DNA of 64,000 nucleotides from Patescibacteria group bacterium (GCA_041661745.1 JBAZTR010000001.1:300306-364305); one strand, 5' to 3'; positions 1 to 39,034 are shown, counted from the stretch's first letter. The notes: generated by a model from the letters alone, not told the origin. Made by a program: numbers and translations.

Positions 1-539
1 GGGCCGTAATTATTGGAACAGTTGGAAATAGTTACCGGCAAACCGTAAGTAATATGATACGCCCGAACTAAATGATCGGCCGCGGCTTTTGAAGCCGAAT
101 ACGGATTGCACGGACGATATGGTGATTCCTCGTTGGTCGAAGGAGCGTCAAGAGTTAAGGCACCGAAGACTTCGTCGGTTGAAACATAATGGAAACGTTT
201 TAAACCATTATGTCGAGCGGCTTCTAAAAGAACTTGTGTTCCCAAAACATTGGTTTTAATAAATTCGCTTGAATCCATAACCGAACGATCAACGTGCGTC
301 TCGGCGGCAAAGTGAACAACCGTGTCAGTATCTTTAACCAGGTTAAAAACCAAATCACGATCGCAAATATCGCCCTTAACAAATTTTATTTTGTCCATGG
401 CCGCCTCAAGGTTACGCAAATTGCCGGCGTAAGTAAGTTTATCTAAAACTACCACCTCGTCTTCGGGGTGATTCTTTAACCAATAATGAACGAAGTTAGA
501 ACCAATGAACCCGGCCCCTCCGGTAACTAAAAGTTTCAT
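1..539 (-). CDS. rfbB: dTDP-glucose 4,6-dehydratase (N-terminal part; C-terminus lies outside the window)
   Basis: Reverse translation gives MKLLVTGGAGFIGSNFVHYWL...GDICD...STDEVFG...YSASKAAADHLV...NCSNNYGP, the Rossmann GxxGxxG and YxxxK motifs of RfbB-type SDRs. ATG at 537-539. Confidence 0.8.
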   Translation of the reverse strand, partial: MKLLVTGGAGFIGSNFVHYWLKNHPEDEVVVLDKLTYAGNLRNLEAAMDKIKFVKGDICDRDLVFNLVKDTDTVVHFAAETHVDRSVMDSSEFIKTNVLGTQVLLEAARHNGLKRFHYVSTDEVFGALTLDAPSTNEESPYRPCNPYSASKAAADHLVRAYHITYGLPVTISNCSNNYG

Positions 540-565
540 ATCTTTAAAAACAGTTTTAAACGATC

Positions 566-970
566 CTAAATCAAGCGTCTAATCTTTTCGGAAACATCGG
601 CTAAGCTGTCCTCGGAATTTTTGTCGCGACTCCATGGTTCAAAACCATCATTGGTGTAACGTGGAATAATGTGAAAATGCGTGTGAAAAACCACCTGACC
701 GGCGGCATGGCCAACATTACAGTGAACGTTACAGCCGGGCGCCCCAACGCTTTGCATAATGGCCGGAGCGATTCTTCTAATCACACTAACCAAGGCATGC
801 ACGTCATCGCTATCGGTTTCCAAAAGATGATCAGCGTGTTTTTTTGTAGCAATTACGGTGTGGCCCGGGTTAAGTGGTTTAATGTCCAAAAAGGCCAAAA
901 TTCGTTCATCCTCATAAATTTTGTGGCACGGCACTTGACCAGCGACAATCTCGCAAAAAAGACAGTTCAT
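566..970 (-). CDS. HIT-family (histidine triad) nucleotide hydrolase
   Basis: 134 aa; HTHFHIIPR histidine-triad motif and a CxxC-containing N-terminus typical of the HinT/HIT family. Confidence 0.8.
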   Translation of the reverse strand: MNCLFCEIVAGQVPCHKIYEDERILAFLDIKPLNPGHTVIATKKHADHLLETDSDDVHALVSVIRRIAPAIMQSVGAPGCNVHCNVGHAAGQVVFHTHFHIIPRYTNDGFEPWSRDKNSEDSLADVSEKIRRLI

Positions 971-1002
971 ATTTTTATTGGATTAACCCGCCTTGGTCCA
1001 AA

Positions 1003-1431
1003 CTAACGGGGCCTTGGCGAGGCTAGAAGATATATTACTAATAATGGCACGACTAAAGCAAGCGGTAAAACTAAAACCAAAAAGTCACTTAAATTAGCCC
1101 GAAATTGCCACACGACAAAAACGCCGGCTAAACCAAAGATAAACGCTGATAAAAATTGTAAAATTTTATTTTCCTTTCTTTCTTTTACCACGCCAGCCCA
1201 CCAGATTCCGGACACAATGGCCACCAGTAAAAACCAATGAATAGAAAAAGTATTGGAAACAAAACCCGGGCGAAACAAATCAAAAGCCAAAAAAACAAAA
1301 AAAGAAACAACCGTCGTCAAAAAAATAGTGCGGGTTAAAATTTCTAAAACCGAAAATTTTTCTTGATGCTTAAAAAACATAATCAAAAACTTTTTTAACC
1401 AATTCGCTAAAAGTGGTGGGCTGGCGAACAA
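1003..1431 (-). CDS. small integral membrane protein, function unknown
   Basis: 142 aa, four predicted TM helices, low-GC host codon usage. Confidence 0.4.
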   Translation of the reverse strand: MFASPPLLANWLKKFLIMFFKHQEKFSVLEILTRTIFLTTVVSFFVFLAFDLFRPGFVSNTFSIHWFLLVAIVSGIWWAGVVKERKENKILQFLSAFIFGLAGVFVVWQFRANLSDFLVLVLPLALVVPLLVIYLLASPRPR

Positions 1432-2833
1432 ATTTAATCTTAATGGAATTTAGTAGCAGTTCCCGATCAGATTGATTAACGGTCGGAGCGGAAATGGCTA
1501 ACTTCCAGGTTTGATCGACAAACGGCACGTTGGCCGTAGGAAAGGTTGCGGTAGCCACCAGCCACTCCCCGGCACGTTCAGGCGGTGTATAGTCGGCAAT
1601 AATATAGTTGACGCCGGCCCGATCAAGGTCGGTCTCCGCGGTTAAATGAAGCGGGTCAGGATTAAAAAATTGCGAATAAGAAAAAGCAAAGTGACCGTCG
1701 GCACGAATAAGCAAATCCTCGGCCGCGGGAACGCGGCCGGCCACCACCCCGGTTTCCGGCGGCGCATAAGAATATTCCAAATACGGTTGGGTTATAGCCA
1801 CTGTCCCCCGACCAACCGAAACCGTTTGTGCTCCGGTGGCGTGACGAGTGGAAAGTTTTAAATTTTTTCCTTCAGTCCAAAAATTTACCGTCGGCGCGGT
1901 GGCCAAATAACCAACCGTATCAGCCAACCAGATCTGATTTAAAAAAGTCATTTTTTGTTGAGAAGTGGAAATGGCTCGAAAAAAAATGTCCTCCGTTGCT
2001 TTCATTTGAACTTTGTAAACACCTTCCGATAAATTTGGGACGGAAACTATCAGAGTTTGCAATGATGAAGCCGAACTATTGTTGGTGGTATTACCGTCGT
2101 CATAAGCGCGTTCTTCGGCCACCGGTTGCCCAGCTTCGTTTGTCACGACAATATCGACCCAATCTTCACCAACTTGGCGATTGGTGTCGGAAAAAGAAAA
2201 TTTAAAATTTAATGTCTCATTTTTAATATAAGTATAAAACTCATGCGAGCCGCGCAAAGAAACATTGGTCGATTTTAATTCAAAAGACGGCACGTAGTCG
2301 GATAGCCGATATGGCCGAGCCAAATCATAATGATAGATGGCAATTTCCGATAAAGCCGGCGGGTTGGCTAAAAAAGAGGCAAGCGTTTCATAATTTTTCT
2401 GACGCTGCAACAAAATCGTGTCATCAATGGAAATTTTATTCCAAAGCGAATTATCGATAATTAAATTTTGCAACGGTTCAAGTTGATAAGCCCCGGTGGT
2501 GGCGTCGGCCAACAGGCCAGCCTCGACAATTGGGGTATTTTTATTTTTAAAACGATATTCGACAACAATGGAATCAAACGAGCGTTGCGGATGGACAAAA
2601 AAGAATACCGGATCACCAATAATTTTCTGAACCCAGTTGCCGTCACTTTCCTGAAAAGTTTCTTCGACCCGGGCATCAGGCAAAAGGCGATCAAGGTACG
2701 GCGAGCTTTCATTAACATTTCGTGAAGTGACAAAAACCCCGCTGGGCACAACGGCAATATTAAACAGCCAGAAAAACAACCCACAAGGAATGAGAATTAT
2801 AACTACTTGAATAATGCGAGCGAAAATTTTCAT
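1370..2833 (-). CDS. hypothetical secreted or membrane-anchored protein
   Basis: 487-aa ORF with an N-terminal hydrophobic segment. It overlaps the downstream ORF by ~60 nt, so the true start may be internal. Confidence 0.45.
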   Translation of the reverse strand: MKIFARIIQVVIILIPCGLFFWLFNIAVVPSGVFVTSRNVNESSPYLDRLLPDARVEETFQESDGNWVQKIIGDPVFFFVHPQRSFDSIVVEYRFKNKNTPIVEAGLLADATTGAYQLEPLQNLIIDNSLWNKISIDDTILLQRQKNYETLASFLANPPALSEIAIYHYDLARPYRLSDYVPSFELKSTNVSLRGSHEFYTYIKNETLNFKFSFSDTNRQVGEDWVDIVVTNEAGQPVAEERAYDDGNTTNNSSASSLQTLIVSVPNLSEGVYKVQMKATEDIFFRAISTSQQKMTFLNQIWLADTVGYLATAPTVNFWTEGKNLKLSTRHATGAQTVSVGRGTVAITQPYLEYSYAPPETGVVAGRVPAAEDLLIRADGHFAFSYSQFFNPDPLHLTAETDLDRAGVNYIIADYTPPERAGEWLVATATFPTANVPFVDQTWKLAISAPTVNQSDRELLLNSIKIKFVRQPTTFSELVKKVFDYVF

Positions 2834-4452
2834 GGTAAAAGAGTAAAACGATATAACGATTCGCTTCCCAAGGTTTCCACCAAATCGATTCGTAATTTTG
2901 CGGCCGCTAATTTCTGATTATTTAAATAATCTAAATCAATTTGTGGCAAAGTTACCCCGTAATAGTATAAAGGAGCGATTGTAATAATTTGCGGCAACAA
3001 GGCGTAGGTCGTTTCGTCGCGCAAGTAATAACGAATCACCCGATCGGGAAAAAACAATTTGTCGCCGCGCTCCGTAACAATCACCGCATTATCTTCGGTT
3101 AAAGTAAGAACGCGTTCACGAACAACTTCAGCTTCAATCAAACGTTCGCGGGTCGGCCACAAAGCATCAACCGAAGAAAAAAAGACGATATTAATGCTAA
3201 GGGCGAGAATAGCCAAAAAACAAACAACCGGAATAAACTTTTTAGTTTTTTCCGCTAGCTTAGTCAAAACCACGGCCACCAACGGGGTAATGGCGACAAA
3301 CAACGGCAACCAATAGCGCGAATAAGAATTACCAATAGTTATAGCCGACAAATCAGGATTATCATGAATGGCCGAAGAACCGTAAACAATAACCAAAATT
3401 GCCGCCGTCAAAAATAATCCCAATAAAGGCCATAAAAATCTACGTCTGGTTTTTTCTTGCCAAAGTAAAAGGCCGGCCCCGACCAAAGCTGGAATGGTTA
3501 ACCACCAAAACATGAGCAAACCATAATTCCAAACATTGTGCCACATGGCCCGTGGATGCAACCCGAATGGTAAATAAACTGATAAATGGTCGCGTGCCGT
3601 CATAAGCCAAGACTGTTCGACGGCAACATTATTGTTAGCTGGCGCGCTAAACGTAACAATACTGGGTGAGGCAACAGTATAACCGGTAACAAAATAATTA
3701 CCGTACATAGCCTTATTTACAAACAAAAGCGGCAAAACCACGACAAATAAACCAAGACCGAAAGCGGCTATGGTCGACCACGAAACTTTTTTTCGCGCGA
3801 CTACCCACGCAAGGAACAAAATTGGCCCAAGCCAAAAAATTTCTGAAGTTCTGATCCACAAGGCCCCGCCGAAAGTTAAACCGGCCAAAAGGAAATCGCC
3901 CCAACGGTTGTTTGAAAAAATTTTTAAACACGGTCGAGTTACCAAGAAGTAAAGCGAAAAAATCAAAAAAGAAACAAGTAAAACATTCGGCATAAGTGGC
4001 CGACCAGACCAATACCACCAAGCCGGCGTAACCAATAAAAGCAGGGCGGAAAAAAGACCAATTCGCCGATCAAAAATTTTAGTCCAAAGCGTGTACCAAG
4101 CAACCACAGCTAAAAAAGAAAAAAGCGGCGTCCAAAAAGTCGTTGACCAAAAACCAAAAATCTTAATCAGCATGCCGAAAAGCAAAGGCAAGCCTAAAAA
4201 TCCAATCGGTAAAAGACGGCCGTCAACAGCAACTGTGCCGCGCGGATAGAAAAAATCACCTAAGACGCTGTTAAAAGGCTCGAAGGAATACAAGTGCCCT
4301 TGGACAGAAAAAGTCTCGGAAAAAAAAGCGTTGGCGGTTTCATCGGGCGAAACAAAAGTTGAACCAACAAAAGACAAAATCTGCGTGGAAATTAAAAAAA
4401 CCAAACCGGCCACGCCTAAAATTAGCAGATCCCGTCTGGTTTCAGATGCCAT
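2830..4452 (-). CDS. polytopic GT-C-type membrane glycosyltransferase (ArnT/PMT-like)
   Basis: 540 aa, about 12 TM helices in the N-terminal two-thirds plus a C-terminal soluble domain. Its position in a glycosyltransferase-rich neighbourhood fits the ArnT/PMT architecture. Confidence 0.5.
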   Translation of the reverse strand: MASETRRDLLILGVAGLVFLISTQILSFVGSTFVSPDETANAFFSETFSVQGHLYSFEPFNSVLGDFFYPRGTVAVDGRLLPIGFLGLPLLFGMLIKIFGFWSTTFWTPLFSFLAVVAWYTLWTKIFDRRIGLFSALLLLVTPAWWYWSGRPLMPNVLLVSFLIFSLYFLVTRPCLKIFSNNRWGDFLLAGLTFGGALWIRTSEIFWLGPILFLAWVVARKKVSWSTIAAFGLGLFVVVLPLLFVNKAMYGNYFVTGYTVASPSIVTFSAPANNNVAVEQSWLMTARDHLSVYLPFGLHPRAMWHNVWNYGLLMFWWLTIPALVGAGLLLWQEKTRRRFLWPLLGLFLTAAILVIVYGSSAIHDNPDLSAITIGNSYSRYWLPLFVAITPLVAVVLTKLAEKTKKFIPVVCFLAILALSINIVFFSSVDALWPTRERLIEAEVVRERVLTLTEDNAVIVTERGDKLFFPDRVIRYYLRDETTYALLPQIITIAPLYYYGVTLPQIDLDYLNNQKLAAAKLRIDLVETLGSESLYRFTLLP

Positions 4453-12280: not shown

Positions 12281-12356
12281 GTGAGTATGTAGTAGGTAGT
12301 ATGTAGGCAATAGTTCTAATTGGATCTTTTGCCTACCTACTACATACTACCTACTA
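12281..12356. repeat. intergenic hairpin repeat, 'tacctac' family, copy 1
   Basis: gtagtaggtagtatgtaggcaa...ttgcctacctactacatactacctac forms a long imperfect inverted repeat. Related copies are at 52641-52720 and 53981-54090. Confidence 0.6.
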
Positions 12357-12370
12357 AATACCTTTAATTT

Positions 12371-14392
12371 TTACCACCCCGCTACAAATATACCATCATT
12401 AAGCGAATCAGAAAATGGAAAGAAACCACCAATAGTTGTACCCGAGGCGTTAAAAACACGTAAATGCGGCCCACCACCCGGTCCGGCCGCTGTGTAAATT
12501 TCCGCCGAACCGTTATCGTCTAAATCAGCAACCGCCACCCTAACACCGCCGCGAAAAAACTCATCGTAAGCGAAAAATGACGCCATAACCGTTCCATCAG
12601 CCTCAAAAGCTCGCACATGCGGCCCACCACCGTAATCAGTGCCGGTAACTATTTCGTCAACCCCGTCGCTATCCAAATCACCGGCTTCAACATAAATTCC
12701 TTTGTCGTAAGTTGTAGCATAGGCTTCAAAAGATTTTATAAAAGTGCCGGTGCCGCTAAAAATCGAAACTGTCGGCTGATGTCCGGATCCGGTCCCGACA
12801 ATAATTTCGTCCGTGCCATCATTGTTTGTATCACCGGCGGCCACGCGTAAACTAAGCGGTGTCACACCAAAAGGTTTAATAAAACCATTTTGTTCACCAT
12901 TCATTTCAAACCAGCGGACTTCCCCATTACCGCCCTTGTCCGGCGCAGTTAAAATTTCGCCAACGCCATCACCGTCAGTGTCGCCAACCCCAACAAAAAT
13001 TCCATGAGTATCACTGGTGCTATAAGCAAAAAATTGTTTAATCAGTGTTCCGTCGGTTTCAAACACTCTAACCTGCGGCCCGCCGCCCGGCCCCGGACCA
13101 GTAACAATTTCATCCACTCCATCACCATCGACATCGCCCATAGCCAAACGAACGCCGCCACCAAAATTTTCGTCATAGGCATAAAACTCGGTTTGTCGAT
13201 TGCCATGCGCGTCAAAAATTCTAACTAGCGACGAATCACCAGCTGGCGCGGTGGCTAAAAAACCGCTAGAAACTTTTGAGATGCTTGAAGCGCCGGCCGA
13301 CGAAGCAAAACTAGCTCCCAATTCAATCGCTTTGGAAATATTCAATCGTCCCGCCCCCAATTGGCCAACAGCTATAGTTCCCTTTTCTTTTAATGGATCG
13401 ACAGATAACTGAAGAACCAGCTTTACTTCGTCAGGGGTGATTCCCGGATAGGCAGCTCGCAGTAAAGCTGCAGCACCAGAAATCATTGGCGCGGCCAACG
13501 AGGTGCCGTCCCAGTTGCCGCCGTAATAATCAGTAAATTCAAGACTGGTATCGTCTTGTAAAAGTGTACTAAAAATATCCACACCGGGCGCGGAAATATC
13601 GGCACAACTAGAGCCGTAATTAGAAAAAGAGGCGCGTTCATCAGACATGTCCGAAGCGGCCACGCCAATAACATAGTCGATCAAACCATCTTGGCTCGCA
13701 AAACAAGCAGGATAAATCGGTATGTCATTAACACTTTCACTTTCGTTACCCAAAGCGGCCACCATAATCACTCCAGCTTCATGGGCTGTTTTAGCCGCAC
13801 TCAAAAAAGAAGAATCAAAAGTTGTGCCGGTTAAACTAAAATTAATAACATCGGCTCCGTTGGCCACCGCGTATTCAACGGCCGCGGTAGCGTTGCGCGA
13901 ATCACCCGAACCAAAACGATCAAGAATACGTACTGGCATTAATTTTATTTTCCAATTTAGTCCGGCAATGCCTTCATCGTTATCAGTTTGTGCCCCAATA
14001 ATGCCGGCCACAAAAGTTCCGTGCAAAATTGCATCAGCGTCAAAAGACTCGGTTGTGTATTCCGGTTCAACCGTGGCATCGTTACGAACAAAATCCCACC
14101 CCTCGACATCATCAATGTAACCGTTATGATCATTATCAATTCCGTCATCGGCAATTTCGTCGGTATTTTGCCAAAAATGACCAACCAAATCGGGGTGATC
14201 GGTATCAATACCAGTATCTAAAATTGCGACCACCACGTCATCAGAACCAGTTGTGGTATTCCACGCCGTGAAAGCGTCAATTTGTCCAAGGTACCATTGC
14301 TTATCCAGATATAAATCATCGGGTGTTTCGGCCAAAACCGGGGTCGCTGTGAAAAAAAAGATAAAGAGAAAAATAAAAAATTTCTTTTGCAT
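12371..14392 (-). CDS. secreted subtilisin-like serine peptidase (S8) fused to C-terminal FG-GAP/VCBS-like beta-propeller repeats
   Basis: Signal peptide; catalytic triad VAILDTGID (Asp), HGTFVAGIIGA (His) and GTSLAAPMISG (Ser). Then about six GDxDGDGxxEIVTGxGxGGGPxVRVF repeats. Confidence 0.8.
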   Translation of the reverse strand: MQKKFFIFLFIFFFTATPVLAETPDDLYLDKQWYLGQIDAFTAWNTTTGSDDVVVAILDTGIDTDHPDLVGHFWQNTDEIADDGIDNDHNGYIDDVEGWDFVRNDATVEPEYTTESFDADAILHGTFVAGIIGAQTDNDEGIAGLNWKIKLMPVRILDRFGSGDSRNATAAVEYAVANGADVINFSLTGTTFDSSFLSAAKTAHEAGVIMVAALGNESESVNDIPIYPACFASQDGLIDYVIGVAASDMSDERASFSNYGSSCADISAPGVDIFSTLLQDDTSLEFTDYYGGNWDGTSLAAPMISGAAALLRAAYPGITPDEVKLVLQLSVDPLKEKGTIAVGQLGAGRLNISKAIELGASFASSAGASSISKVSSGFLATAPAGDSSLVRIFDAHGNRQTEFYAYDENFGGGVRLAMGDVDGDGVDEIVTGPGPGGGPQVRVFETDGTLIKQFFAYSTSDTHGIFVGVGDTDGDGVGEILTAPDKGGNGEVRWFEMNGEQNGFIKPFGVTPLSLRVAAGDTNNDGTDEIIVGTGSGHQPTVSIFSGTGTFIKSFEAYATTYDKGIYVEAGDLDSDGVDEIVTGTDYGGGPHVRAFEADGTVMASFFAYDEFFRGGVRVAVADLDDNGSAEIYTAAGPGGGPHLRVFNASGTTIGGFFPFSDSLNDGIFVAGW

Positions 14393-14417
14393 AACCTAAA
14401 CACAAAAACGGAAAAAA

Positions 14418-15122
14418 TTATTCCGCCATTTTACTCCGAACTTCGGCGATTTTTTCGTTAATCGTCTCGTCATCAGGTGATAATTGTTTTACAACTTTGT
14501 AGTGTGACAAAGCACGATCGTATTGCTCATTATCAGCATACCAATCACCAAGCCGACGAACCAGACCAGGGGTTTGGCCAAGATTGGCAATAGCTTCCTC
14601 AAGAATACTTTGAATTTCTTTTTGACGATCTGGAAATTTATTGTAAATAAGATCAACTAGTTTTAAATAGGTTACTTCCCATGGGTTAACCGAAATAGCC
14701 GCTCGCCAACGGAGCTCGGCTCCTTCGTAATCTTGCATTTCAAACAAAGTTTGACCTAAATTTTCTAAAGCCGCGCCGTCAGCCGGATGATCGGCCAAAA
14801 TTTTTGTTTCGTAAATTTCTTTAGCCGCCGCCAAATCGCCCAATTGGTATTTCATGTTTCCCAAAGTAAGCCATTGAGAAATATCCTTAGCAAGTTCGGA
14901 ATCGGTCGCTAATTTATTTTCCAATTCAGAAATTTTTTGTTCCAAAGTGGCTTTATCACCTTCATTAAAACCACGGTCAATATAATACAAAAAATTATCC
15001 TCAGGCGAAACGATTATTTCGTTATTAAACAGGCCTAGTTTCCACGATAATCCGGAAACGGCCAAAACTAACACGGCAATAATAAAAATCACTCCTTTTA
15101 TTGTAATTTTTGGTAGTTTCAT
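14418..15122 (-). CDS. membrane-anchored TPR-repeat protein
   Basis: Real start MKLPKITIKGVIFIIAVLVL (ATG at 15120-15122); TPR-like helical repeats (GNMKYQLGDLAAAKEIYE..., ALSHYKVVKQL). The ORF-track 5' extension into the high-GC island is spurious. Confidence 0.6.
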   Translation of the reverse strand: MKLPKITIKGVIFIIAVLVLAVSGLSWKLGLFNNEIIVSPEDNFLYYIDRGFNEGDKATLEQKISELENKLATDSELAKDISQWLTLGNMKYQLGDLAAAKEIYETKILADHPADGAALENLGQTLFEMQDYEGAELRWRAAISVNPWEVTYLKLVDLIYNKFPDRQKEIQSILEEAIANLGQTPGLVRRLGDWYADNEQYDRALSHYKVVKQLSPDDETINEKIAEVRSKMAE

Positions 15123-15202
15123 AGTGGTAAAAGTATAACTAAAAACCGTAATTTTCGCAAGAAAAAAATCCCCAGGGCCGAAGCCAAGGGGAAAGCGCCC
15201 CG

Positions 15203-18160
15203 TTAGGGGCAGGAAAGGTCGGTGCCGTTGTCGTAGACGTACGGCTCCCACCTCACGTAGCGACAGCCGTCCCACGCGGTGCTGTTGTACGTACAGCACT
15301 CGGAGTACGTCGAACAGTACGCGGTGAAGGACGGGATCTTCCAGTCGGCACAGTCGGTCGTTCCGACCGGATCGAGTGGATTGGACGCCGAGAGTGTCGA
15401 CACCAGACGGAACGACCCGGCCCCGGTGGCAAAGTCGTCCGTGGTGACGCACCACGAATCCATGACTCCGTCGTCGTCGACATCGCCGTTCAGGGCCCGG
15501 GTATCGACGAGGGCGGTGTACGGCGTGCCAAACTGGAGGTAGGTCGAGGCTTCGCTGTACGGCGAGGCCAGAACCAGGAAACCGGGCACGCAGGCATCGA
15601 TGCCTCCGTCGCCGTCGGCATCGATGAGGTCAACGAGGTCTTCACTGTTCAAGATCCCGTCGGAATCCACGTCCTCGCAATCCCAGATGTCGTCGGCCGT
15701 ACCGCTGCAGTCTTCGTCAATTCCGTCGCAGGTCTCGGTGGCGCCGGGGTAGACGGCTGCGTCGGCGTCATCGCAATCGGTGTTGTCTGCGATGTAGCCC
15801 GTGGGCTGATCGCAGGCATCCTGAGACATAGCACTGCTGCCGTACCCGTCCTCGTCCGCGTCCGCGTACCAGGTGGTGGCGTCGAGAGCATCGGCTTCGT
15901 CAGTGGTACCGTCGCAGTCCTCGTCGACTCCGTCGCAGGTTTCGGTGGCGCCGGGATAGACGGCTGCGTCGGTGTCGTCGCAGTCGTCGTCGTTCAGGAC
16001 GTAATCGTCCGGCTTGCTATCGGGGCAGCCGGAGGCTTGGGTTCCTTCGGGATCACCGTAGCTATCGCTGTCTTCGTCGGGCCAGCCGACGTAGTAGGTG
16101 AAGCCTTCATCAGTCGCGCCGTCACAGTTGTTGTCGAGGCTGTCACAGATCTCCTCAGCGCCGGGGTTGATCTCGGCGTCGGTATCGTCGCAGTCGGAGT
16201 CGTCCTCGACGTAACCCGAGAGCACAGTGCAGGCCTCGACCGAAATCGAAGCGTCACCGTAGCCATCGGAATCAGTGTCGGGAGACTGGGTGATCAGCAG
16301 GTCGTTGTCGATCACACCATCACAGTCCTCGTCGACTCCATCGCAAGTCTCGGTAGCGCCCGGGTAGATACTGGCATCGCCGTCATTGCAGTCGTCGCAG
16401 GCAGCCGAACCGTCGCTGTCTGCATCAGCCCAACCAGTCGAGCCGTCGCAGTTGTAGTCGGCCGGGTCGGAGCAGTTGGACTCATCGGCTCCGGGATGGT
16501 AGGCCGCATCGGTGTCGTCACAGTCGTCGTCGTTCGTGACGTAACCCTCGAGTACAGCGCAATCCTCGGTCGAAACCAAGGGGTCGCCGTAGCCGTCGGA
16601 GTCAGCGTCGCGATACTGAGTGACCATCAAGCCATCGTCGGCCGTGCCGTCGCAGTCCTGATCCACACCATCGCAGACCTCGACCTCGTCGGGGTTGATG
16701 GCGGCGTTCGTGTCGTCGCAGTCAGTTGCGTCCGTGACATAGCCATCGAGTACAGCACAGTCCTCGGTCGAAACCAAGGCGTTGCCGTGTCCATCGCCGT
16801 CAAGATCCTGGTACTGAGGAATGGTGGCGATACCATCATCGGCCGTGCCATCGCAGTCCTGATCCAGGTCGTCACAGACTTCGGCCGCGCCGGGATTGAT
16901 GGTGGCGTCGAGGTCGTCGCAGTCGGTCGCGTCCTCGACGTAACCAGTGGGCTGGTCGCAGGCGTCCTGGGACACGGTACTGTCGCCGTATCCGTCACCA
17001 TCGACATCGACGTACCAGGTGGTGGCGTCGAGAGAGTCGGCTTCGTCGGTGGTACCGTCGCAGTCGTTGTCGACCAGGTCGCAGTACTCATCGGCGTCCG
17101 GGTTGATGGTGGCGTCGGTGTCGTCACAGTCGGTCGCGTCCGTAACGTAGCCTGTGAGGGCCTCGCAGTCCTCGATAGACATCGCGGCGTCGCCGAAGCC
17201 ATCACCGTCGGAGTCCTGGAACTGGATGATGGTGACGAGACCATCGTCGGCCGTGCCGTCGCAGTCCTGATCCACACCATCGCAGACCTCGACCTCGTCG
17301 GGGTTGATGGCGGCGTTCGTGTCGTCGCAGTCAGTTGCGTCCGTGACATAGCCATCGAGTACAGCACAGTCCTCGGTCGAAACCAAGGCGTTGCCGTGTC
17401 CATCGCCGTCAAGATCCTGGTACTGAGGAATGGTGGCGATACCATCATCGGCCGTGCCATCGCAGTCCTGATCCAGGTCGTCACAGACTTCGGCCGCGCC
17501 GGGATTGATGGTGGCGTCGAGGTCGTCGCAATCCTCACAAGCCGCCCAACCGTCGGTGTCAGCGTCAGTGAGGGCAGAAGAACCATCGCAGTTGTAGTCG
17601 TTCGGATCCGTGCAGTCGTCCTCGGTGGCGCCGGGGTGGTAGGCCGGGTCCGAGTCATCGCAGTCAGTATCGTCCTCGATGAAGCCCGGGGGCTGGTCAC
17701 AAGCAACCTCGTAGACATCGGGGTCGCCGTAACCGTCCTCGTCGCCATCGAAGAACCAGATGGGCGCATCGATCGCGTCCGCCTCGTCGGTCGTGCCGTC
17801 GCAGTCGTTGTCGACCAGATCGCAGTACTCAGCGGCATCCGGGTTGATGGTGGCGTCCTCATCGTTGCAGTCGCCTTCCTCAACCGTCCATCCGTCGTCG
17901 TCCACGTCGACCGGATCGATCCCGGTATCGCCGGTATCGGTATCCGTGTCCGTGTCGGTGTCGGAATCGGTGTCCGCATCCGTATCGGTATCCGTGTCAG
18001 AGTCGGTATCGACATCGGTATCCGTGTCGGAATCCGAATCAGTGTCAGTGTCCGAGTCGATGTCGGTGTCAACTACCGGATCCCCAGTGTCGACTCCGGG
18101 CCACGGCGGCAGACAGCCGGCCATGAAAAGCGCCAAGAAAGCGGCCAGAATGAAACGCAT
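15203..18160 (-). CDS. high-GC lipoprotein built from at least 12 MopE-type (Pfam PF11617-like) Cys/Asp-rich putative metal/Ca-binding repeats
   Basis: Lipobox signal MRFILAAFLALFMAGC, then a DTDSDTDTD linker, then repeats of CDDxDAxINPxAxExCDxxDxDCDGxxDE. GC3 is about 90% against the low-GC flanks. Promoter TTGCCA-N17-TTTAAT and RBS GAGGGA lie upstream. Confidence 0.7.
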   Translation of the reverse strand: MRFILAAFLALFMAGCLPPWPGVDTGDPVVDTDIDSDTDTDSDSDTDTDVDTDSDTDTDTDADTDSDTDTDTDTDTGDTGIDPVDVDDDGWTVEEGDCNDEDATINPDAAEYCDLVDNDCDGTTDEADAIDAPIWFFDGDEDGYGDPDVYEVACDQPPGFIEDDTDCDDSDPAYHPGATEDDCTDPNDYNCDGSSALTDADTDGWAACEDCDDLDATINPGAAEVCDDLDQDCDGTADDGIATIPQYQDLDGDGHGNALVSTEDCAVLDGYVTDATDCDDTNAAINPDEVEVCDGVDQDCDGTADDGLVTIIQFQDSDGDGFGDAAMSIEDCEALTGYVTDATDCDDTDATINPDADEYCDLVDNDCDGTTDEADSLDATTWYVDVDGDGYGDSTVSQDACDQPTGYVEDATDCDDLDATINPGAAEVCDDLDQDCDGTADDGIATIPQYQDLDGDGHGNALVSTEDCAVLDGYVTDATDCDDTNAAINPDEVEVCDGVDQDCDGTADDGLMVTQYRDADSDGYGDPLVSTEDCAVLEGYVTNDDDCDDTDAAYHPGADESNCSDPADYNCDGSTGWADADSDGSAACDDCNDGDASIYPGATETCDGVDEDCDGVIDNDLLITQSPDTDSDGYGDASISVEACTVLSGYVEDDSDCDDTDAEINPGAEEICDSLDNNCDGATDEGFTYYVGWPDEDSDSYGDPEGTQASGCPDSKPDDYVLNDDDCDDTDAAVYPGATETCDGVDEDCDGTTDEADALDATTWYADADEDGYGSSAMSQDACDQPTGYIADNTDCDDADAAVYPGATETCDGIDEDCSGTADDIWDCEDVDSDGILNSEDLVDLIDADGDGGIDACVPGFLVLASPYSEASTYLQFGTPYTALVDTRALNGDVDDDGVMDSWCVTTDDFATGAGSFRLVSTLSASNPLDPVGTTDCADWKIPSFTAYCSTYSECCTYNSTAWDGCRYVRWEPYVYDNGTDLSCP
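16627..16920. repeat. intragenic near-exact direct duplication, ~295 bp, copy 1 (copy 2 at ~17225-17520)
   Basis: The stretch catcgtcggccgtgccgtcgcagtcctgatccacaccatcgcagacctcgacctcgtcggggttgatggcggcgttcgtgtcgtcgcagtcagttgcg... recurs about 600 bp later. It encodes two identical MopE double-repeat blocks. Confidence 0.7.
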
Positions 18161-18267
18161 GTGTGTATCCCTCGCAGTCGATTGTTTCGGTTTTTTTGGG
18201 TGTTTATCATGTTAAAGAACAGCTGATAATTAAAGCATAAAACAACGGGGGTGGCAAGTCTACCCAT

Positions 18268-18310
18268 CAAAACCAAAAGCACAGCCCGAAAGCTGTGCCT
18301 TTGTTTCTTA
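18268..18310. terminator. bidirectional intrinsic terminator (gcacagcccgaaagctgtgc hairpin flanked by A/T runs) ending the giant surface-protein gene
   Basis: Perfect 7-bp stem at 18279-18298, followed on the minus strand by UUUUGGUUUUG. Confidence 0.6.
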
Positions 18311-18473: not shown

Positions 18474-21400
18474 TTAGAAGGTCAAGGAGTTGCCACGAAC
18501 TGGCAAGGTCTTGAGCAAGGAAGCATATAACTCGGTTGTGGCCGAATCGTCTTCCCAGTTAATCGTACCATCTGTTCCGGCGTGTGCAGAAGAACCAGTG
18601 GCAGAGTTTGCGTTTGTTTCAAGAGTAATACGCAAAGTGTCATCGTTCGAAGCATTAGCGCCGGTCGAAGCCACTGTCATATACAAAGCATATGTGACAG
18701 ATGAGCCAGCCGCAATTGTATCAAGACCTGCGGCGTCTGCATCATCAACAACGATATAGAGAACATCTTCATGACCAGTAGTACAAGCTGCACCAGAAGT
18801 TGTAAAGAATGACCAATCTCCATCAGCGTCAAGAGCTGTTCCAAGATCGGCAATGTCGTACAAGGCCATATCAGGTTCGTCCAAATAAGCCGAGGCAGTT
18901 GTATCGCAAGTGTTCCAGTCTGAAGCACCCTGGTCAGTCGAACTCAAAGCGAAGGTAACTTCGTTTAAGGTAACATAACCACGCGAGTCAGCGGAAACTG
19001 TGAAGTGGAAGACGTCGTTCGCACCGTTATAGACAGCACCAGAAGGTGTGCCAGACGAAGGCGAGATTGTCGGCTTGGTCTTGTAGAGGGTCATTTCGTT
19101 AGAGGCAACCGCAGTATAAGTTACTGTGGTACCGGTAAGAGTTGTACCCGAACCTTGACCAACAGCTGATAGGTCGCCAGCAATCTTAGTCAAAGAGGCA
19201 GCTACTAAAGTTCCGGAAGTCGCACCAGTAGTTGAAACTGCACTTGTGTCAGCAGTAATTGTGACATAAGCACTGGCGTTTTCACCGACATAGAAATCCA
19301 TGCCAGTGAACGTTACTTTACTACCTGTAAAGTAACCAGTCTTTGTTTCGGTTACGCCATCGGAATTGGTGTAAGAGGCAGTCAACAAAGTGGCGACGTT
19401 GTCAGCACCAGAAGTTTCGGTGCCGTCATTACAATCGTTAGCTAGACCATCATAGCTGGTGCCATCAGTGTCGTAGCAGTTGTAGAAGGCCATCTTATCA
19501 ACCACGAAAGCTTCGTTGGCCGAAGTGAATTTGTACTTGGCAATCGACACACCGGTCGAAGAACCAAGAACAATTGTTGACGTCGGCATATCCGAAGCGG
19601 CAGTGATTGTCAAAGTTCCAGAAGCAGCGACTGTAAGAATCGGGACTCCCGGAATGTTAGCGGCAACTGTGTCATGTTCGGTGTCGTCGCTGGTATCAAC
19701 AGTACCACTACCATCAGAGTCATAAGAACCATCAACAGAGTCACCGTCTTCATCCTCGGCAACGAGCAGAGGAACGCCGTTGGTTGTCTGCAGATAGAAC
19801 TTATAAGTATCGCTAGCAGCATCAGTGTCGTCCAAAGCCACGTTGGCCAGGTCGCACTTCATGAGCAACTTTTCAGTTTCACCAGCATCGACCGTCCACG
19901 CAAAGCTCTCAAAAGCAATGGTGTAATCGGCTGTAGCTTCGGTGGCTGAACTGGCTGAAACGCCCTCTGGGCCATCAACCAAAGCGCCGGTCACGCTGTC
20001 ATAAATTGAGCAGGAGCTAATATGATCAGAAGGAACCAGGTCAACGTCAGGAGTATATGTGGCATCAGAATCACCGGCTACCATATATGTAGCTTCGGAA
20101 ATTGTAATGCTCGAGGATTCAGCAGCTGTGAAAGCATAACCAACCACCGGAACCGCGGCAGTACCAATAACATAGGTACCGGCCGACGGGGTGGAAGATT
20201 CATCAACCGTCAAGGACGAGGTTGTGATGGTCATGTAGTAACCAGAGATATCAGCTGTTGGTACGATATCAGTCGAGTTTGTCAAGGCATCGCCATTGGC
20301 GTCCTCGGCAGTAACAAGACTCACGTCAATCGTGGCTCTGACCAAATCAGCATTCAAGTCAGTGTCAGAATCGACATCAACTGTAACCATAAGGTCGAGT
20401 GAATCACCGGCTTGAAGATCTTGATAATCATCAAAGGTCAAAGTCTGGGTTTGGTCATCGGCGTGAGAGGCGGAAGCATTAGTAACGCTAAGTTCTTCCG
20501 GACCCATCCAAACCGTACCATCCGATTCACGAATAGAGATATCGGTGTAGTTGGCACCATCGCTGGTGTTGTTCAACAAATCATCGTCATCGGCGGCATC
20601 GTCAGCACCAGTGCCTATGTTCAAGATGATCGGCAAGTGTTGCAACTGAGTCCAGTTGGCTGAAGTGAGGGTAAATTCCAAGAGAACTTGATCAGCACTA
20701 TCAACCGCGATATCAGTAGATGTAGGACCATTGAAAGCAAAGGTCAAATCACCGCCCTGGATTGTTGACTCAGAACATTGTGTGGAGCAGGAGGCATTAC
20801 CGGTTTCATCGTAACCAGTAACATCAATACCCATGTTAAAGCCATAGATACTACCAATAGCCATAACATCGGCACTTTCTTCGATGGCAACGCTGATAAC
20901 TTCAGCAGATTCACCACCAACATCGGCCTTAACATACAATGTTTGGTCGCCACCTTTTTCAATTACCAACGGTTCGGTAAGAATAAAGGTAACTTTTTTT
21001 CCATCAACTGTTCCTTCTGAGAGAAGGTCGGCGCCATCATAAAGTGTAAAATTGTCGTGATCGCCGGCGTTATCAACATCGAACATGACTTGTTCAAGAG
21101 AAGCGCCTTCGGTGGCCGCGGCAAATTTAACTTTAGCAAGGGTGGCCTGTTCTTGACCGATGGTTGGGTTTGTGATCGAACCATTCTTGGTTACGGTCAA
21201 AGTTCCAGCAACGGTATCAGAAAAGGTCATAGTATTACCGGAAATTGGGAAGTTGCCAGAGACATCGTTATCAGTGACAACATCAGCCGCTTCAACCAAG
21301 GTGAAGTTCACTGTATCACCAGATGCAACCGTGGCCGCAGCTGCGACATCGATGCGAACGGTGAGATATTTGGTTTCGCCATCGGTGAAATCCAAATCCA

Positions 21401-22364
21401 ACGAACCAAAAGTAACTTCACGAGTTGTGGAATTAATGGAGCGGGCATTGGTCAAACGATCAGTTCCCTCATAGAGGTAGGTATTGGAGATGTTGGCTGT
21501 TGCGCCAACGCCACCAAGACGGAAAATCATTTGATCAATTGTGGCCGCACCTTCGGTAGCTGTCACTTTGAAAGTGGCAACTTCCACGGAATCAGCCGAG
21601 GAAGGAATTGTGACTGAAGCCGGGGAATCTGAAGCTAACGAAATTGACAAACCGCCAGTACTCACGCTAATGCCACCCTGTTGGGCAGTGTCAACGAGTT
21701 CAGCGCTCTCGGCAGTTATGGCAGAACCGGTGGTAATACCATCGAGATCAATGCCAGAACCATCAAGAACCAAACGAGTCTGGAAGTTGTTGTCGCTCAT
21801 GGCATCGATAAGGTGCTTTTCACCGTCCCAGATCAGGTAGGTGTCAGAACCGTCTTTCACTAACGCGCCTTCGTAGGCATCGCTAGCGCTCATGAGAGAA
21901 GTACCAACTGTGTAATCGACAAAGAATGTATCAGAGACGTCGTCAATGAAAGCATTCCAGTCGGCGCCGGCCAAACCTTCGGCAACATCCTCGGTTTCAA
22001 TCCAGCGGATTGTACCATCGGGTGTTGGGGCGTAGGTCTTCGGATCGCTTTGAATTTTAATCCAATGTGAACCTGGGCGATATACGATGTTTCCAGCCAA
22101 CGGGATAGCCGCCAAAGCGGAATCGGAGATGGTTTCAACATCGCTGAAATCAGCGTACCAGGAGAAATAGGTTTTTTCGTTCGGGAAAGCGTAACGGGAG
22201 CCATCGCCACCATAATAATAAACGGTGGAAAGGGTTGTACCCTTGATGACGTCACCAGCGGAGGCCGCGTGTGCTGTCATTGGGAGGTTGGCAATGCCGA
22301 CTGACCAGACAATGGTCAAAACGGCTACTGCACCCGTAAACGCCTTTTTAAAAGCATTTTTCAT
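18474..22364 (-). CDS. giant secreted surface protein, ~1296 aa, Thr/Ser/Asp/Gly-rich with repetitive beta-sandwich-like segments
   Basis: Real start MKNAFKKAFTGAVAVLTIVWSVGIANLPMTAHA (signal peptide; ATG at 22362-22364). Long low-complexity T/S/D/A/G-rich repeats; host-like mixed GC3. Confidence 0.6.
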   Translation of the reverse strand: MKNAFKKAFTGAVAVLTIVWSVGIANLPMTAHAASAGDVIKGTTLSTVYYYGGDGSRYAFPNEKTYFSWYADFSDVETISDSALAAIPLAGNIVYRPGSHWIKIQSDPKTYAPTPDGTIRWIETEDVAEGLAGADWNAFIDDVSDTFFVDYTVGTSLMSASDAYEGALVKDGSDTYLIWDGEKHLIDAMSDNNFQTRLVLDGSGIDLDGITTGSAITAESAELVDTAQQGGISVSTGGLSISLASDSPASVTIPSSADSVEVATFKVTATEGAATIDQMIFRLGGVGATANISNTYLYEGTDRLTNARSINSTTREVTFGSLDLDFTDGETKYLTVRIDVAAAATVASGDTVNFTLVEAADVVTDNDVSGNFPISGNTMTFSDTVAGTLTVTKNGSITNPTIGQEQATLAKVKFAAATEGASLEQVMFDVDNAGDHDNFTLYDGADLLSEGTVDGKKVTFILTEPLVIEKGGDQTLYVKADVGGESAEVISVAIEESADVMAIGSIYGFNMGIDVTGYDETGNASCSTQCSESTIQGGDLTFAFNGPTSTDIAVDSADQVLLEFTLTSANWTQLQHLPIILNIGTGADDAADDDDLLNNTSDGANYTDISIRESDGTVWMGPEELSVTNASASHADDQTQTLTFDDYQDLQAGDSLDLMVTVDVDSDTDLNADLVRATIDVSLVTAEDANGDALTNSTDIVPTADISGYYMTITTSSLTVDESSTPSAGTYVIGTAAVPVVGYAFTAAESSSITISEATYMVAGDSDATYTPDVDLVPSDHISSCSIYDSVTGALVDGPEGVSASSATEATADYTIAFESFAWTVDAGETEKLLMKCDLANVALDDTDAASDTYKFYLQTTNGVPLLVAEDEDGDSVDGSYDSDGSGTVDTSDDTEHDTVAANIPGVPILTVAASGTLTITAASDMPTSTIVLGSSTGVSIAKYKFTSANEAFVVDKMAFYNCYDTDGTSYDGLANDCNDGTETSGADNVATLLTASYTNSDGVTETKTGYFTGSKVTFTGMDFYVGENASAYVTITADTSAVSTTGATSGTLVAASLTKIAGDLSAVGQGSGTTLTGTTVTYTAVASNEMTLYKTKPTISPSSGTPSGAVYNGANDVFHFTVSADSRGYVTLNEVTFALSSTDQGASDWNTCDTTASAYLDEPDMALYDIADLGTALDADGDWSFFTTSGAACTTGHEDVLYIVVDDADAAGLDTIAAGSSVTYALYMTVASTGANASNDDTLRITLETNANSATGSSAHAGTDGTINWEDDSATTELYASLLKTLPVRGNSLTF

Positions 22365-22573
22365 AATTATTTTCGAACTCCATTTTATTGAGCGCGGGAG
22401 CACGCGCCATTTGCCATGCACCGTATGGTGCATGGGTTGCGGCAATTATTTCACGTCATGGCCCCAGCCGTTGGTTCAACCTTTGCCAGTGACGCATTTT
22501 AGATTGGTTGCGAGGTGAAAAAACACCTCTCCGCAGATTCCCTTTTTTAGAATCTGCCGAGAATTGTCTTTAT

Positions 22574-32668: not shown

Positions 32669-34258
<1,590 letters not shown>

Positions 34259-34467
34259 TGGGGTGAAGGATCTATATCAACCTGTTTTTAACTCTTTTAA
34301 GCTAAAAAGGATCAAAAACAGATTGAAATTTTCAACGCCATATTTCAACATTTTTTAAAGCTTTTGTCAATATCTAGTGAGGATATTTTAACAAAAACAA
34401 TAGACCTCCGATCGCGTCCCACCCAGAGGGGGTAGAACACGTCGGAGGTCTGAGGCTCCCCTGCTAG

Positions 34468-35559
34468 CTAGAGGCTGCAGAGGAGGTCGTAGCCGCCCAC
34501 TCCGTTCGAGAGGGGGTAGCAATCGGAAGTGGCGGTGGCGCCGATGGTCAGCGCGACGCCGTTGAGGGCGATGCCGGTGATGTGGACGACGGGCCCGTAT
34601 TCCACGAGCCAGCCGCCCGACCTGACGCCGTTCAGCTGTACGTTCGTGGCGCTGGCCGCGAGACCGGTGGCGAAGGTCGAGGAGGTCCCGGCCGCGACCG
34701 AATCGCAGCCAGATGCTCCGCCGAACCAGTGGGACCAGTCGCCGCCGGCCGCGTAGCACAGGGACCACGCACTCGAGGAGACGGTCGAGTCGACGGTGAC
34801 GACCAGGCCGTTGTCGACCGTGTCGTCGCAGTCGTTGTCGATGAGGTCGCCGGCGACTTCAGTCGCGCCGGGGTGAATGGTGACGTCGGTGTCGTCGCAG
34901 TCGCGGCCCGAGGCGGCACCGCAATCGACGCCGTACCCGTCGCCGTCTTCGTCTACTTCGGCGCCGGCGAAGCAGACGCCGGAGTCGCAGTAGTACGTGT
35001 AGCACGCGTCTGCCGGGCAGTCCGCGTCCGTCACGCACTCGGGCTCGACATCCGTGTCGGTGTCCGTGTCGGTATCGGTGTCGCTGTCGGAATCCGTATC
35101 GGCATCGGAATCGGAATCGGTATCGGTGTCCGAGTCCGTATCCGCGTCGGTGTCGCTGTCCGTGTCGGCGTCGGTATCGGAATCGGTGTCGCTGTCGGCA
35201 TCCGTATCCGCATCCGTGTCCGAGTCGCTGTCGGCGTCCGTGTCGGTGTCGGACTCTCCGGTATCGCCGGTGTCCCCGACGCCGGTGTCACCGGTGTCCG
35301 TATCGGTGTCGGAATCGGTATCGCTGTCGGCGTCCGAATCCGAGTCGGCGTCGGTATCCGTGTCGGCTTCGCCGGTGTCGGCCGTGTCGGTCTTGCCGGT
35401 GTCGCTGGTATCACCAGTGTCGGTGTCCTCGGTACCGGTGTCGTCGACAATCTCGACGCCGGTGTCCTGCTGACCACCACTCACCACCGACGGGGCATAG
35501 CAGCCCCAGAGGGTGAAGGAAGCGGCGAAGGCGAGGACGAGGGTCAGGGCGCGGTTCAT
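34468..35559 (-). CDS. high-GC lipoprotein with a long poly-(Asp-Thr/Ser) acidic linker and a C-terminal Cys-rich domain containing one MopE-like repeat
   Basis: Start [20 protein letters not shown] (lipobox; ATG at 35557-35559, GGAG RBS). [17 protein letters not shown] low complexity, then [23 protein letters not shown] ... [14 protein letters not shown]. Confidence 0.65.
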
Positions 35560-35754
35560 GGGAGTCTCCGGGTTGACTGGGTGCTGCCTCAGTTTTTTCC
35601 CTAAAACCAATACGGCTTGTTGGGATTGGGCAGCGTCTGAAAGGGCTTTGTTCAGGGTCTTTTAAGACCTTAAACAAGCATTAAATAATACCACAAAAAA
35701 GGCCTTTTGTCAACCGTGATAGGGGGCCTTTTGGTGGGGGCTTTTTGATAAATT

Positions 35755-35805
35755 TAGGCGGCGTTCGGGCATTAAAGGGCTTTAAAGGGCGTTAAGGCAA
35801 GGAAA
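35755..35805. repeat. 'gggcgttaagg' short-tandem-repeat element, copy inside island 2
   Basis: taggcggcgttcgggcattaaagggctttaaagggcgttaaggcaaggaaatattt. Related copies at 11215-11262 (reverse complement), 38536-38640 and 39035-39110. Confidence 0.55.
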
Positions 35806-35895
35806 TATTTAAAAAAAATACGACCCCCGGACCACTCGCTTCGCCTTGGGAGGCAAAGAAGTGGTACAGGGGCCGAAGCCCGCAGGATGAAGTCC

Positions 35896-36666: not shown

Positions 36667-36701
36667 GGGAATCTCCACGAAAGCGGCCCGAATCGGGCCA
36701 T

Positions 36702-36709
36702 GGGGGGGG
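36702..36709. repeat. poly-G8 tract ~40 nt upstream of the lipoprotein start, preceded by a ggcccgaatcgggcc hairpin
   Basis: ccatggggggggtgtcagg. It is the same arrangement as at the neighbouring island gene. Confidence 0.5.
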
Positions 36710-38935: not shown

Positions 38936-39034
38936 TAAGTTATCAGTTTGTTTGGTGGTCGTCAAGCGCCTTTTTTGGGTCTATTGGAGGGACTGTGGAG
39001 ACTGAGATACTGAGGGGGGTATTTAATAATAAGC

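Follow-up and report, generated by a model that had tools for sequence, protein, structure and literature searches.

A GC-rich MopE-type repeat lipoprotein gene, probably resident rather than freshly imported, in a clade of Patescibacteria

Compositional islands in metagenome-assembled genomes (MAGs) are routinely read as horizontal gene transfer (HGT) or contamination. Is that the right reading for a gene whose GC content of 0.59–0.62 stands out against ~0.44 around it? The gene lies on the minus strand of a 64,000-nt stretch of Patescibacteria DNA (the window, in which all coordinates of the gene and its surroundings are given) and encodes a predicted 985-residue lipoprotein built mainly of MopE-type repeats, here called MopE985. 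We conclude that MopE985 is probably a resident surface lipoprotein gene of a Patescibacteria clade and not a freshly imported island, and that its product is probably a calcium-stiffened, disulfide-stapled stalk with a variable tip. We consider it unlikely that the gene was recently imported from a high-GC donor, while an old acquisition or an exchange of cassettes within the clade is possible. The MopE985 family would thus be a clean counter-example to the routine reading, as it is found in the same slots of at least six related genomes, always with GC-rich codons, and with spacers that are closer to the host.

Architecture of MopE985

MopE985 is 100% identical to NCBI MFA6131754.1, which is named 'putative metal-binding motif-containing protein [Patescibacteria group bacterium]' and is located on a 366,405-bp Patescibacteria MAG contig. 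It adds a new member to a repeat family that is known but functionally uncharacterised, and to which public databases already assign it. The initial annotation of the window had described this open reading frame (ORF) as a MopE-type repeat lipoprotein of 985 residues with at least 12 repeat units, and our analysis bears this out. The parts of the gene are as follows.

15203..18160, minus strand: coding sequence of MopE985, 985 aa, MopE-type repeat lipoprotein, GC 0.62
18113..18160, minus strand: putative signal peptide and lipobox (...FMAG followed by C16), aa 1–16, read from the sequence
17870..18091, minus strand: acidic low-complexity linker, rich in Asp-Thr/Asp-Ser, aa ~24–97, with 12-nt periodic repeats (family D5)
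15686..17869, minus strand: 12 MopE-type units, aa 98–825
15206..15685, minus strand: C-terminal non-repeat domain, Cys-containing and mostly β, aa 826–985; putative distal/ligand-binding tip

The protein starts with MRFILAAFLALFMAGC. Its N-terminus, MRFILAAFLALFMAG, is followed directly by the lipobox Cys, with Gly at position -1, Ala at -2 and Met at -3. A hydrophobic N-terminus ending in Cys is common to all related island proteins (LAGC, LTGC, LVSC, LTAC, LCGC and TSAC). From these sequence features, MopE985 is probably lipid-anchored at the cell surface.

The repeat region is matched by PF11617 (Cu-binding_MopE / putative metal-binding motif) in 12 stretches, with a score of 373.6 bits compared to a cut-off of 27 (E 2.2e-114). 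The 12 units start between aa 98 and 796; ten of them are 66–70 residues long and the other two 44 residues, and the order of unit types is A B C D A C D B x x A x. Most full-length units contain four cysteines (five in unit 9) and two DxDxDG-like loops, with 25 such motifs in total. An alignment of three-unit segments (30 rows) has 32 invariant columns, all of them Cys, Asp, Pro, Glu or Gly, which include the three Cys of each motif core and recur in each unit. The mature protein contains 57 Cys and is extremely acidic, with 290 Asp and Glu versus 7 Lys and Arg; only 4 of the 985 residues are His. More than 7,500 homologs are found at E <= 1e-10, and no NCBIfam model matches the protein. The C-terminal domain, which ends in ...NGTDLSCP, has only three weak relatives in an exhaustive HMMER search of 1.84 billion representative proteins. 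The literature that we searched contained no description of this gene family in Patescibacteria, nor of a GC excess confined to ORFs.

Two other open frames overlap the gene, at 16037–18226 on the plus strand (729 aa) and at 16627–18072 on the minus strand (481 aa). These antisense or alternative-sense frames are rich in Val/Gly/Arg or Thr/Pro/Arg, and look like a by-product of GC-rich codons rather than genes.

The gene family occupies fixed slots in related genomes

MopE-type genes occur at two sites. The first, the island-1 slot, lies between the gene of a giant surface protein and the TPR and S8 genes; relatives were found by scans with the neighbouring S8 and TPR genes. The second, the island-2 slot, lies beside Wzy-GT4-GT4-DUF11-GHL15. 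Island 2 itself (window 32669–38298, minus strand) encodes four secreted proteins and is syntenic with MopE clusters beside Wzy in two related genomes, L005 and L009. The contents of the island-1 slot in the relatives are as follows.

L001 (S8 82% identical): a true ortholog truncated by the contig end, with its last 66 aa 74% identical (...TDCSDWEIPSFTDYCTTYSDCCTY...LSCP, then stop)
L013–L016 (TPR 69% identical): a 503-aa lipoprotein on the same strand, with an LTD-like C-terminus
L002 (S8 74% identical): two genes for MopE lipoproteins of 1333 and 339 aa, inverted relative to MopE985, both products LTD-like at the C-terminus
L007 (GenBank JAGVPA010000043, 'bacterium isolate DeMMO3_36'): an unrelated 951-aa ORF, 203–3058 (+), in the slot upstream of TPR

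Downstream of the L001 ortholog come the same terminator hairpin, TPR (73%) and S8. The synonymous divergence (dS) between the window and L001 is 0.83 for the ortholog fragment of 66 codons and 1.17–1.27 for the flanks. The 503-aa lipoprotein of L013–L016 has an N-terminus, MRFFHILFFAVLTSACRPPW...DTGD, that resembles MopE985, and its Asp-Thr/Ser/Ala linker is ~190 residues long in L013. It contains only two MopE motifs, which match precisely the duplicated module of MopE985 described below (64% over 98 aa, aa 412–508). The giant surface protein that borders the slot is 64% identical in L002 and has counterparts in L013. The ORF in L007 has no Pfam match and does not look secreted, with a GC3 (the GC content of third codon positions) of 0.57 compared to 0.38; the slot can therefore take other cargo.

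In the island-2 slot, MopE-type lipoprotein genes are present in the window, in L005 (a 668-kb contig) and in L009/L010. The L009/L010 protein, P0002, is the best non-self match to MopE985 (48%) and is identical on nine contigs from several samples. The rare C-terminal domain of MopE985 recurs in P0124, encoded by one of the L005 genes.

The site is thus not vacant in the relatives: the ortholog of L001, the related same-strand gene of L013–L016 and the MopE genes of L002 all occupy it. The initial annotation had proposed that the module was acquired or spread more than once; this gains no support, in view of the orthologs or MopE genes found in the same slots of L001, L013–L016, L002, L005 and L009. 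The MopE family is a standing component of the clade in fixed slots. Its members vary in unit number (2 to ~19), linker length, C-terminal tip domain, gene number and orientation, and comparison of these sequences shows a locus that is remodelled quickly. The best hint as to which clade this is comes from a TPR homolog with 54% identity that is labelled Candidatus Uhrbacteria, suggesting an Uhrbacteria-like affiliation within the Patescibacteria.

Two further observations concern the relatives. Four GC-rich, near-perfect hairpins follow one another in L002 (8880–9110), in the interval bounded by the TPR promoter and the beginning of the 339-aa MopE gene, and resemble repetitive extragenic palindromes or miniature inverted-repeat transposable elements. 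A Lys-rich MopE protein of 1357 aa is encoded in L017 (6536–10609; GCA_041294325.1, JBGCVI010053584), which belongs to an unrelated Patescibacteria lineage; its neighbours are LytR, a signal peptidase, HisRS and a type IV secretion system pilin, and the same neighbourhood surrounds another protein, P0032.

The GC excess is confined to the reading frames

The step in GC content matches the gene, rising at ~15160 (terminator and stop codon) and falling at the ATG (18160). The GC3 of MopE985 is 0.77, compared to a mean of 0.434 (standard deviation [sd] 0.058) for 40 host genes, and thus lies 5.8 sd above them. The initial annotation had called it near-saturated, a description that suits island 2 (0.85–0.99) and not MopE985. 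A similar excess is found across genomes whose own GC3 differs widely.

L001: host 0.25, island 0.67
L009: host 0.36, island 0.73
L002: host 0.39, island 0.76
Window: host 0.42, MopE985 0.77, island 2 0.92, p401 (a further outlier, see below) 0.79
L013: host ~0.55, island 0.75
L005: host 0.75, island 0.92

The excess is smaller in the MopE gene of the unrelated lineage L017 (0.56 compared to 0.30–0.40 in its neighbours). The logit shift of GC3 is ~0.9–1.8 in most genomes, and the shift to GC-ending codons is positive in every codon family. The proportion C/(C+G) at four-fold degenerate codons of the island genes tracks each host's own value. Outside the GC-rich L005, the island spacers have a GC content of 0.39–0.55, within or near the host intergenic range, compared to 0.60–0.71 for the ORFs. 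The spacers flanking MopE985 are at 0.46, and the inner spacers of island 2 are at 0.40–0.55 versus 0.66–0.71 for its ORFs; spacers likewise lie below ORFs in L002 and L009.

Three candidate causes of the excess were rejected. Expression-linked codon bias is ruled out by the genes for S2, EF-Ts, GAPDH, PGK and enolase, whose GC3 is only 0.41–0.48. A tRNA-specific (NAY/Q34) cause is ruled out since the shift is also positive in Glu, Gln, Leu, Ile and Pro. Biased gene conversion among repeats is ruled out by the 66 non-repeat C-terminal codons, whose GC3 (0.85) exceeds that of the whole gene, and by the non-repeat island-2 gene p459 (0.93).

Thus, an excess confined to the ORFs fits long residence under a force favouring synonymous G/C better than it fits recent transfer. 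Taken together, the compositional data and the absence of mobility signatures speak against a recent import from a donor of at least 65% GC. We tentatively suggest, as an idea that may well be wrong, that these genes for secreted Cys/Asp-rich lipoproteins have long kept G/C-ending codons, in their ORFs only, against AT-biased mutation (host GC3 0.25–0.75), through a gene-specific force on synonymous sites that is neither HGT nor expression bias. Selection might, for example, act on the GC content or the structure of the mRNA, to aid secretion or to help the disulfide-rich repeats fold; an ORF-linked bias of repair or conversion is another candidate. Slow decay after an old import of a GC-rich gene is also possible. 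The MopE family would be a test case for forces on synonymous sites in small, AT-drifting genomes.

The preferred codons also explain a BamHI/SalI site pair that the initial annotation had singled out at the 5′ end of the gene. The SalI site GTCGAC occurs eight times in the gene and many times in island 2, since GTC-GAC encodes Val-Asp in preferred codons, and BamHI sites occur six times in the window. A cloning-site meaning is ruled out by this frequency in GC-rich genes, and the pair has no significance.

Independent assemblies and the internal duplication

The junction of the gene with TPR and S8 is reproduced in two further assemblies of the same strain, with 99.7–100% identity, over the 3′ half of the gene. 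One of them, L011 (Logan SRR6484324), is 100% identical over window 12281–16454, and the other, L012 (ENA ERZ27249449, MEGAHIT k141), covers window 13884–16772 and is identical across the whole part of the gene that it contains. The junction between MopE985 and its flank is not chimeric. Single-nucleotide differences between the window and L012 were set aside, as all of them lie in S8 and carry no information on MopE985.

The gene contains a tract that is present twice.

17241..17530, minus strand: 290-nt tract, copy 2; unit 3 and the MopE motif of unit 4
16632..16921, minus strand: 290-nt tract, copy 1; unit 6 and the MopE motif of unit 7

The two copies match perfectly, with 99 identical residues, at an offset of 609 nt, which equals three units, with 319 nt (16922–17240) between them, and identity breaks down at both borders of the tract. 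The initial annotation had noted a perfect, intragenic and very recent duplication, which holds, but had given its length as 295 nt instead of 290 and placed it ~5–15 nt away. The tract is an intragenic duplication or conversion in a three-unit register. The L012 contig stops at 16772, exactly 141 nt (the k of that assembly) into copy 1. A de Bruijn graph is expected to split at exactly this distance into a tract that is preceded by two different sequences on its left, and the end point therefore supports a real two-context repeat in independent reads. Exact repeats of 49 and 76 nt are present in relatives, likewise at a three-unit offset (621 nt), and recombination in that register therefore seems habitual. 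In all likelihood the 290-nt duplication in MopE985 is real, and it is the latest change in an array undergoing rapid remodelling.

A model for the protein

In the model that we propose, the signal peptide and lipobox Cys would anchor MopE985 in the membrane, and the Asp-Thr/Asp-Ser linker would serve as a flexible acidic spacer through the envelope. The 12 MopE-type units would form an elongated stalk, which is probably rigid because most full-length units carry four Cys and most carry two DxDxDG-type acidic loops, and could thus be held by disulfides together with Ca2+ or other divalent cations. The stalk would present the poorly conserved C-terminal β domain as a working tip, which probably contacts another cell or a surface polymer. 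The AF2 model of units 5–7 (predicted local distance difference test [pLDDT] 96, predicted template modelling score [pTM] 0.69) consists of small β-hairpins and coil, in keeping with a chain of small stapled modules; the model of the C-terminal domain (pLDDT 44) is unusable.

To our knowledge, all Patescibacteria cultivated to date are attached to other microbes, by proteins of which only a few have been identified. A partner-binding tip would suit organisms that, where cultivated, live in this way. With its lipid anchor, quick remodelling and interchangeable tips, a stalk encoded amid envelope and glycosylation genes would make a reasonable candidate for contact with a host.

Alternative explanations

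A recent transfer from a high-GC donor, such as a member of the Myxococcota, would make the high GC3 a donor signature that has not yet ameliorated. The 5.8-sd deviation from host genes is as such a transfer would leave it, and the best non-self full-length matches are, by name, MAG proteins of Myxococcota, Pseudomonadota and Thermodesulfobacteriota. Moreover, a high-GC organism, L006 (GC 0.75), combines MopE repeats with the same rare C-terminal domain, island-2 genes reach a GC3 of 0.99 and one of them has an end like that of an outer-membrane barrel, and L002 and L007 have other cargo in the slot. However, a close donor is missing: the highest external identity, 40–53%, is limited to the repeats, and the top match, P0002 (48%), itself comes from a clade relative, in the Wzy slot. 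Divergence of the L001 and L013 orthologs is on a par with that of their flanks, the promoter, spacers and terminators lie far below the ORF in GC, and the four-fold C-versus-G preference follows each host. Nor were mobility genes, a tRNA or border repeats found around the gene. Recent transfer is thus unlikely. The clade itself offers GC-rich sources, as its host GC3 spans 0.25–0.75, and the ORFs might have been replaced repeatedly by homologous recombination with GC-richer relatives (L005-like, ~60% GC), much as O-antigen or capsule loci are swapped between conserved flanks; a high GC3 would then persist with no selection on codons. Such an exchange of cassettes would agree with slots that are bounded by conserved genes (giant/TPR-S8 and Wzy-GT4), with content, orientation and tip domains (LTD-like or orphan) that differ among relatives, and with the unrelated cargo of L007. 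Yet no pair of relatives has near-identical island genes (the window and L005/L009 are only 39–48% identical), the L001 ortholog has diverged about as much as its flanks, and whole cassettes would bring donor spacers, whereas the spacers are well below ORF GC. We regard this exchange as possible, if rather unlikely.

An artefact of assembly or binning, in which a foreign high-GC fragment was joined to a low-GC contig and the 290-nt duplicate was misassembled, would produce sharp compositional steps such as those seen here, and short-read contigs do break in such repeats, as those of L001, L011 and L012 do within the gene. The junction of gene, terminator, TPR and S8 is nevertheless present in three same-strain assemblies and in the diverged L001 and L013–L016, P0002 in the sister slot is identical on its nine contigs, and the L012 end 141 nt into the repeat is the prediction of a real two-context repeat; an artefact is extremely improbable. 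A different function, the acquisition of copper or another trace metal at the surface by the repeats, as in MopE of Methylococcus, is suggested by the Pfam family name, by the single PDB sequence match (MopE*, 2vov, residues 5–44), by weak Cu(II) binding of MopE* that needs its first 24 residues (PMC3423442), and by the extreme acidity and many Cys of MopE985. The high-affinity Cu(I) site of MopE* is, however, formed by His132, His203 and kynurenine-130 outside the motif, and the motif-bearing N-terminal 46 residues are absent from its crystal structure (PMC3423442). MopE985 has only four His, and the even spacing of its Cys would be more in line with structural disulfides than with metal thiolates, given an extracellular location. 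Metal capture of this type is quite unlikely, and copper binding by MopE985 is not supported.

We therefore favour a resident gene that would encode a surface stalk. Several observations nonetheless weigh against this reading. The comparison with L001 covers 66 codons, and orthology beyond L001 and L013 is positional only (opposite orientation in L002, an unrelated ORF in L007); repeated replacement at a hotspot is therefore possible. A rough estimate of amelioration from dS, starting from a GC3 of 0.95 at the split of the window and L001, gives ~0.6 compared to the observed 0.77, and slow decay after an old import is therefore possible for the MopE985 island. The GC3 of 0.85–0.99 in island 2 is hard to maintain through selection alone, and a raised GC3 is also found in ORFs that are not secreted or have no repeats (p401 and, in L007, the 951-aa ORF). 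Mixtures of strains could yield the same L012 end point. As for the protein, Met at position -3 of the lipobox is atypical for a lipoprotein, and neither Lgt nor signal peptidase II (LspA) was seen among the scanned ORFs of the 64-kb window, where no dedicated search for them was made. Foldseek found no PDB match for the repeat model, we know of no structure for any member of the repeat family and of no experiment on the role of the motif, and the function of MopE985 is wholly a matter of deduction.

Comparison with known systems

The closest parallels are the PF11617 proteins ('putative metal-binding motif-containing' or 'MopE-related'), which are abundant in Myxococcota and many MAGs. They share the same ~30-residue core, CDDxDxxxxPGxxExCDGxDxDCDG, alternating with DxDGDGYG spacers in units of ~67 residues as in MopE985, and likewise have a variable C-terminal domain (C-type lectin, fibrinogen-like, FG-GAP, β-helix or LTD). 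MopE985 is shorter than the top matches (985 versus 1100–1700 aa) and has an N-terminal lipobox and an Asp-Thr linker. It further differs in its near-orphan C-terminal domain, its Patescibacteria genome of 44% GC and its ORF-confined GC-rich codons. MopE* of Methylococcus capsulatus (PDB 2VOV) has one copy of the motif (residues 5–44, E 2e-4) and is secreted or surface-associated and calcium-stabilised (PMC3423442). It carries a single motif instead of an array, its similarity to MopE985 is limited to 40 residues, and its copper site and solved fold are unrelated to the repeat.

The SD repeats of staphylococcal microbial surface components recognizing adhesive matrix molecules (MSCRAMMs; SdrC/D, ClfA/B) similarly place an acidic dipeptide spacer between the anchor and the functional domains. 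The anchor is a C-terminal LPXTG there and an N-terminal lipid in MopE985, from which LPXTG is absent, and the dipeptide in MopE985 is Asp-Thr, Asp-Ser or Asp-Ala; the likeness is one of spacer working and composition, not of ancestry. DT380 of island 2, which has an equivalent linker, scores 45–63 bits with the Sdr/Clf models, whose cut-offs are 999–2500 (63 compared to 1700 in one case), as a low-complexity match to the SD regions. Thrombospondin type-3 repeats and LDL-receptor class A modules combine DxDxDG-type loops and paired Cys into a Ca2+-dependent rigid rod. Their likeness to MopE985 is by motif only, in acidic loops interleaved with paired Cys in short tandem modules, and neither Pfam TSP_3 nor Ldl_recept_a matches MopE985 at E <= 0.01. 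Enterobacterial O-antigen and capsule clusters tend to have a higher AT content than the rest of the genome, with the spacers deviating along with the genes across entire operons. They resemble the MopE985 locus as variable surface loci of deviant GC in a fixed slot within an envelope or glycosylation region; in MopE985, by contrast, the deviation is towards GC and confined to ORFs.

Island 2 and other compositional outliers

The four proteins of island 2 are as follows.

MopE529: 7 units, GC3 0.94
DT380: Asp-Thr-rich lipoprotein, GC3 0.85
MopE260: 1 unit, GC3 0.99
p459 (36919–38298, minus strand): 459 aa, signal peptide, no Pfam match, GC3 0.93

The initial annotation had assigned MopE985 and island 2 to one foreign family. 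Both do belong to PF11617, but 'foreign', in the sense of a recent transfer, is not supported. In a comparison of repeat units, MopE985 units are closest to each other (71–100%), then to those of relatives and of outside organisms, about equally (54–72%), and are least similar to the units of MopE529 (37–55%). The two islands are therefore separate family lineages, not recent copies of each other.

The Gly-rich β C-terminus of p459 (...GGLVFAY) resembles an outer-membrane β-barrel signature, which is unexpected in a Patescibacterium. Its positional analogues in L005 (1083–2438) and L009 (5832–7271) have no BLAST similarity to it. The 890 nt upstream of p459 (window 38299–39188, GC 0.51) contain no ORF of at least 150 aa.

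A third compositional outlier, p401, lies between a Cache-domain gene and MltG/YceG.

42692–43897, minus strand: p401, 401 aa, GC3 0.79, no signal peptide, no Pfam or NCBIfam match

Homology between p401 and the 951-aa ORF of L007 was not detected. Two more ORFs, at 52726–53190 and 63287–63868 (both minus strand), have no Pfam match and a GC3 of 0.67 and 0.60, respectively; they may be spurious frames or small outliers.

The locus and its control elements

The flanks and putative control elements of MopE985 are as follows.

14418–15122: TPR gene, flanking MopE985
15160..15189, minus strand: intrinsic-terminator-like hairpin (15170–15189) and T-run, after the stop codon and directly before the TPR promoter
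18168..18173, minus strand: Shine-Dalgarno-like GAGGGA, 7 nt before the ATG
18229..18257, minus strand: putative promoter, TTGCCA (18257–18252), 17-nt spacer and TTTAAT (18234–18229), in host-like AT-rich DNA, read from the sequence
18274..18303, minus strand: terminator-like hairpin of the giant surface-protein gene, the upstream limit of the slot
18474–22445, minus strand: giant surface-protein gene, 1323 aa, no Pfam domain, upstream border of the slot

MopE985 lies between the TPR gene and the terminator of the giant gene, just as initially annotated, and the hairpin of that terminator is present. The proposed promoter and ribosome-binding sequences are also there; a consensus promoter scan made no call at 18229..18257, because the -10 hexamer has no A at position 2, and the promoter role of this segment is only putative. 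No direct or inverted border repeats were found at the MopE985 island, and the neighbouring ORFs that were scanned contain no integrase, transposase or other mobility domain.

Across the window as a whole, envelope and glycosylation genes are interspersed with housekeeping genes. The window encodes glycosyltransferases, Wzy, a PMT-like protein, S8-FG-GAP and GHL15-FG-GAP proteins, UvrD and MltG, as well as glycolysis enzymes, S2, EF-Ts, and SmpB with transfer-messenger RNA (tmRNA). No tRNA was found in the window, and the tmRNA is 43 kb from MopE985. The tmRNA (60995–61401, minus strand) has the tag ANANIFSQVKNTFAKAFAVPSFVSVVA and adjoins SmpB (61482–62273, minus strand).

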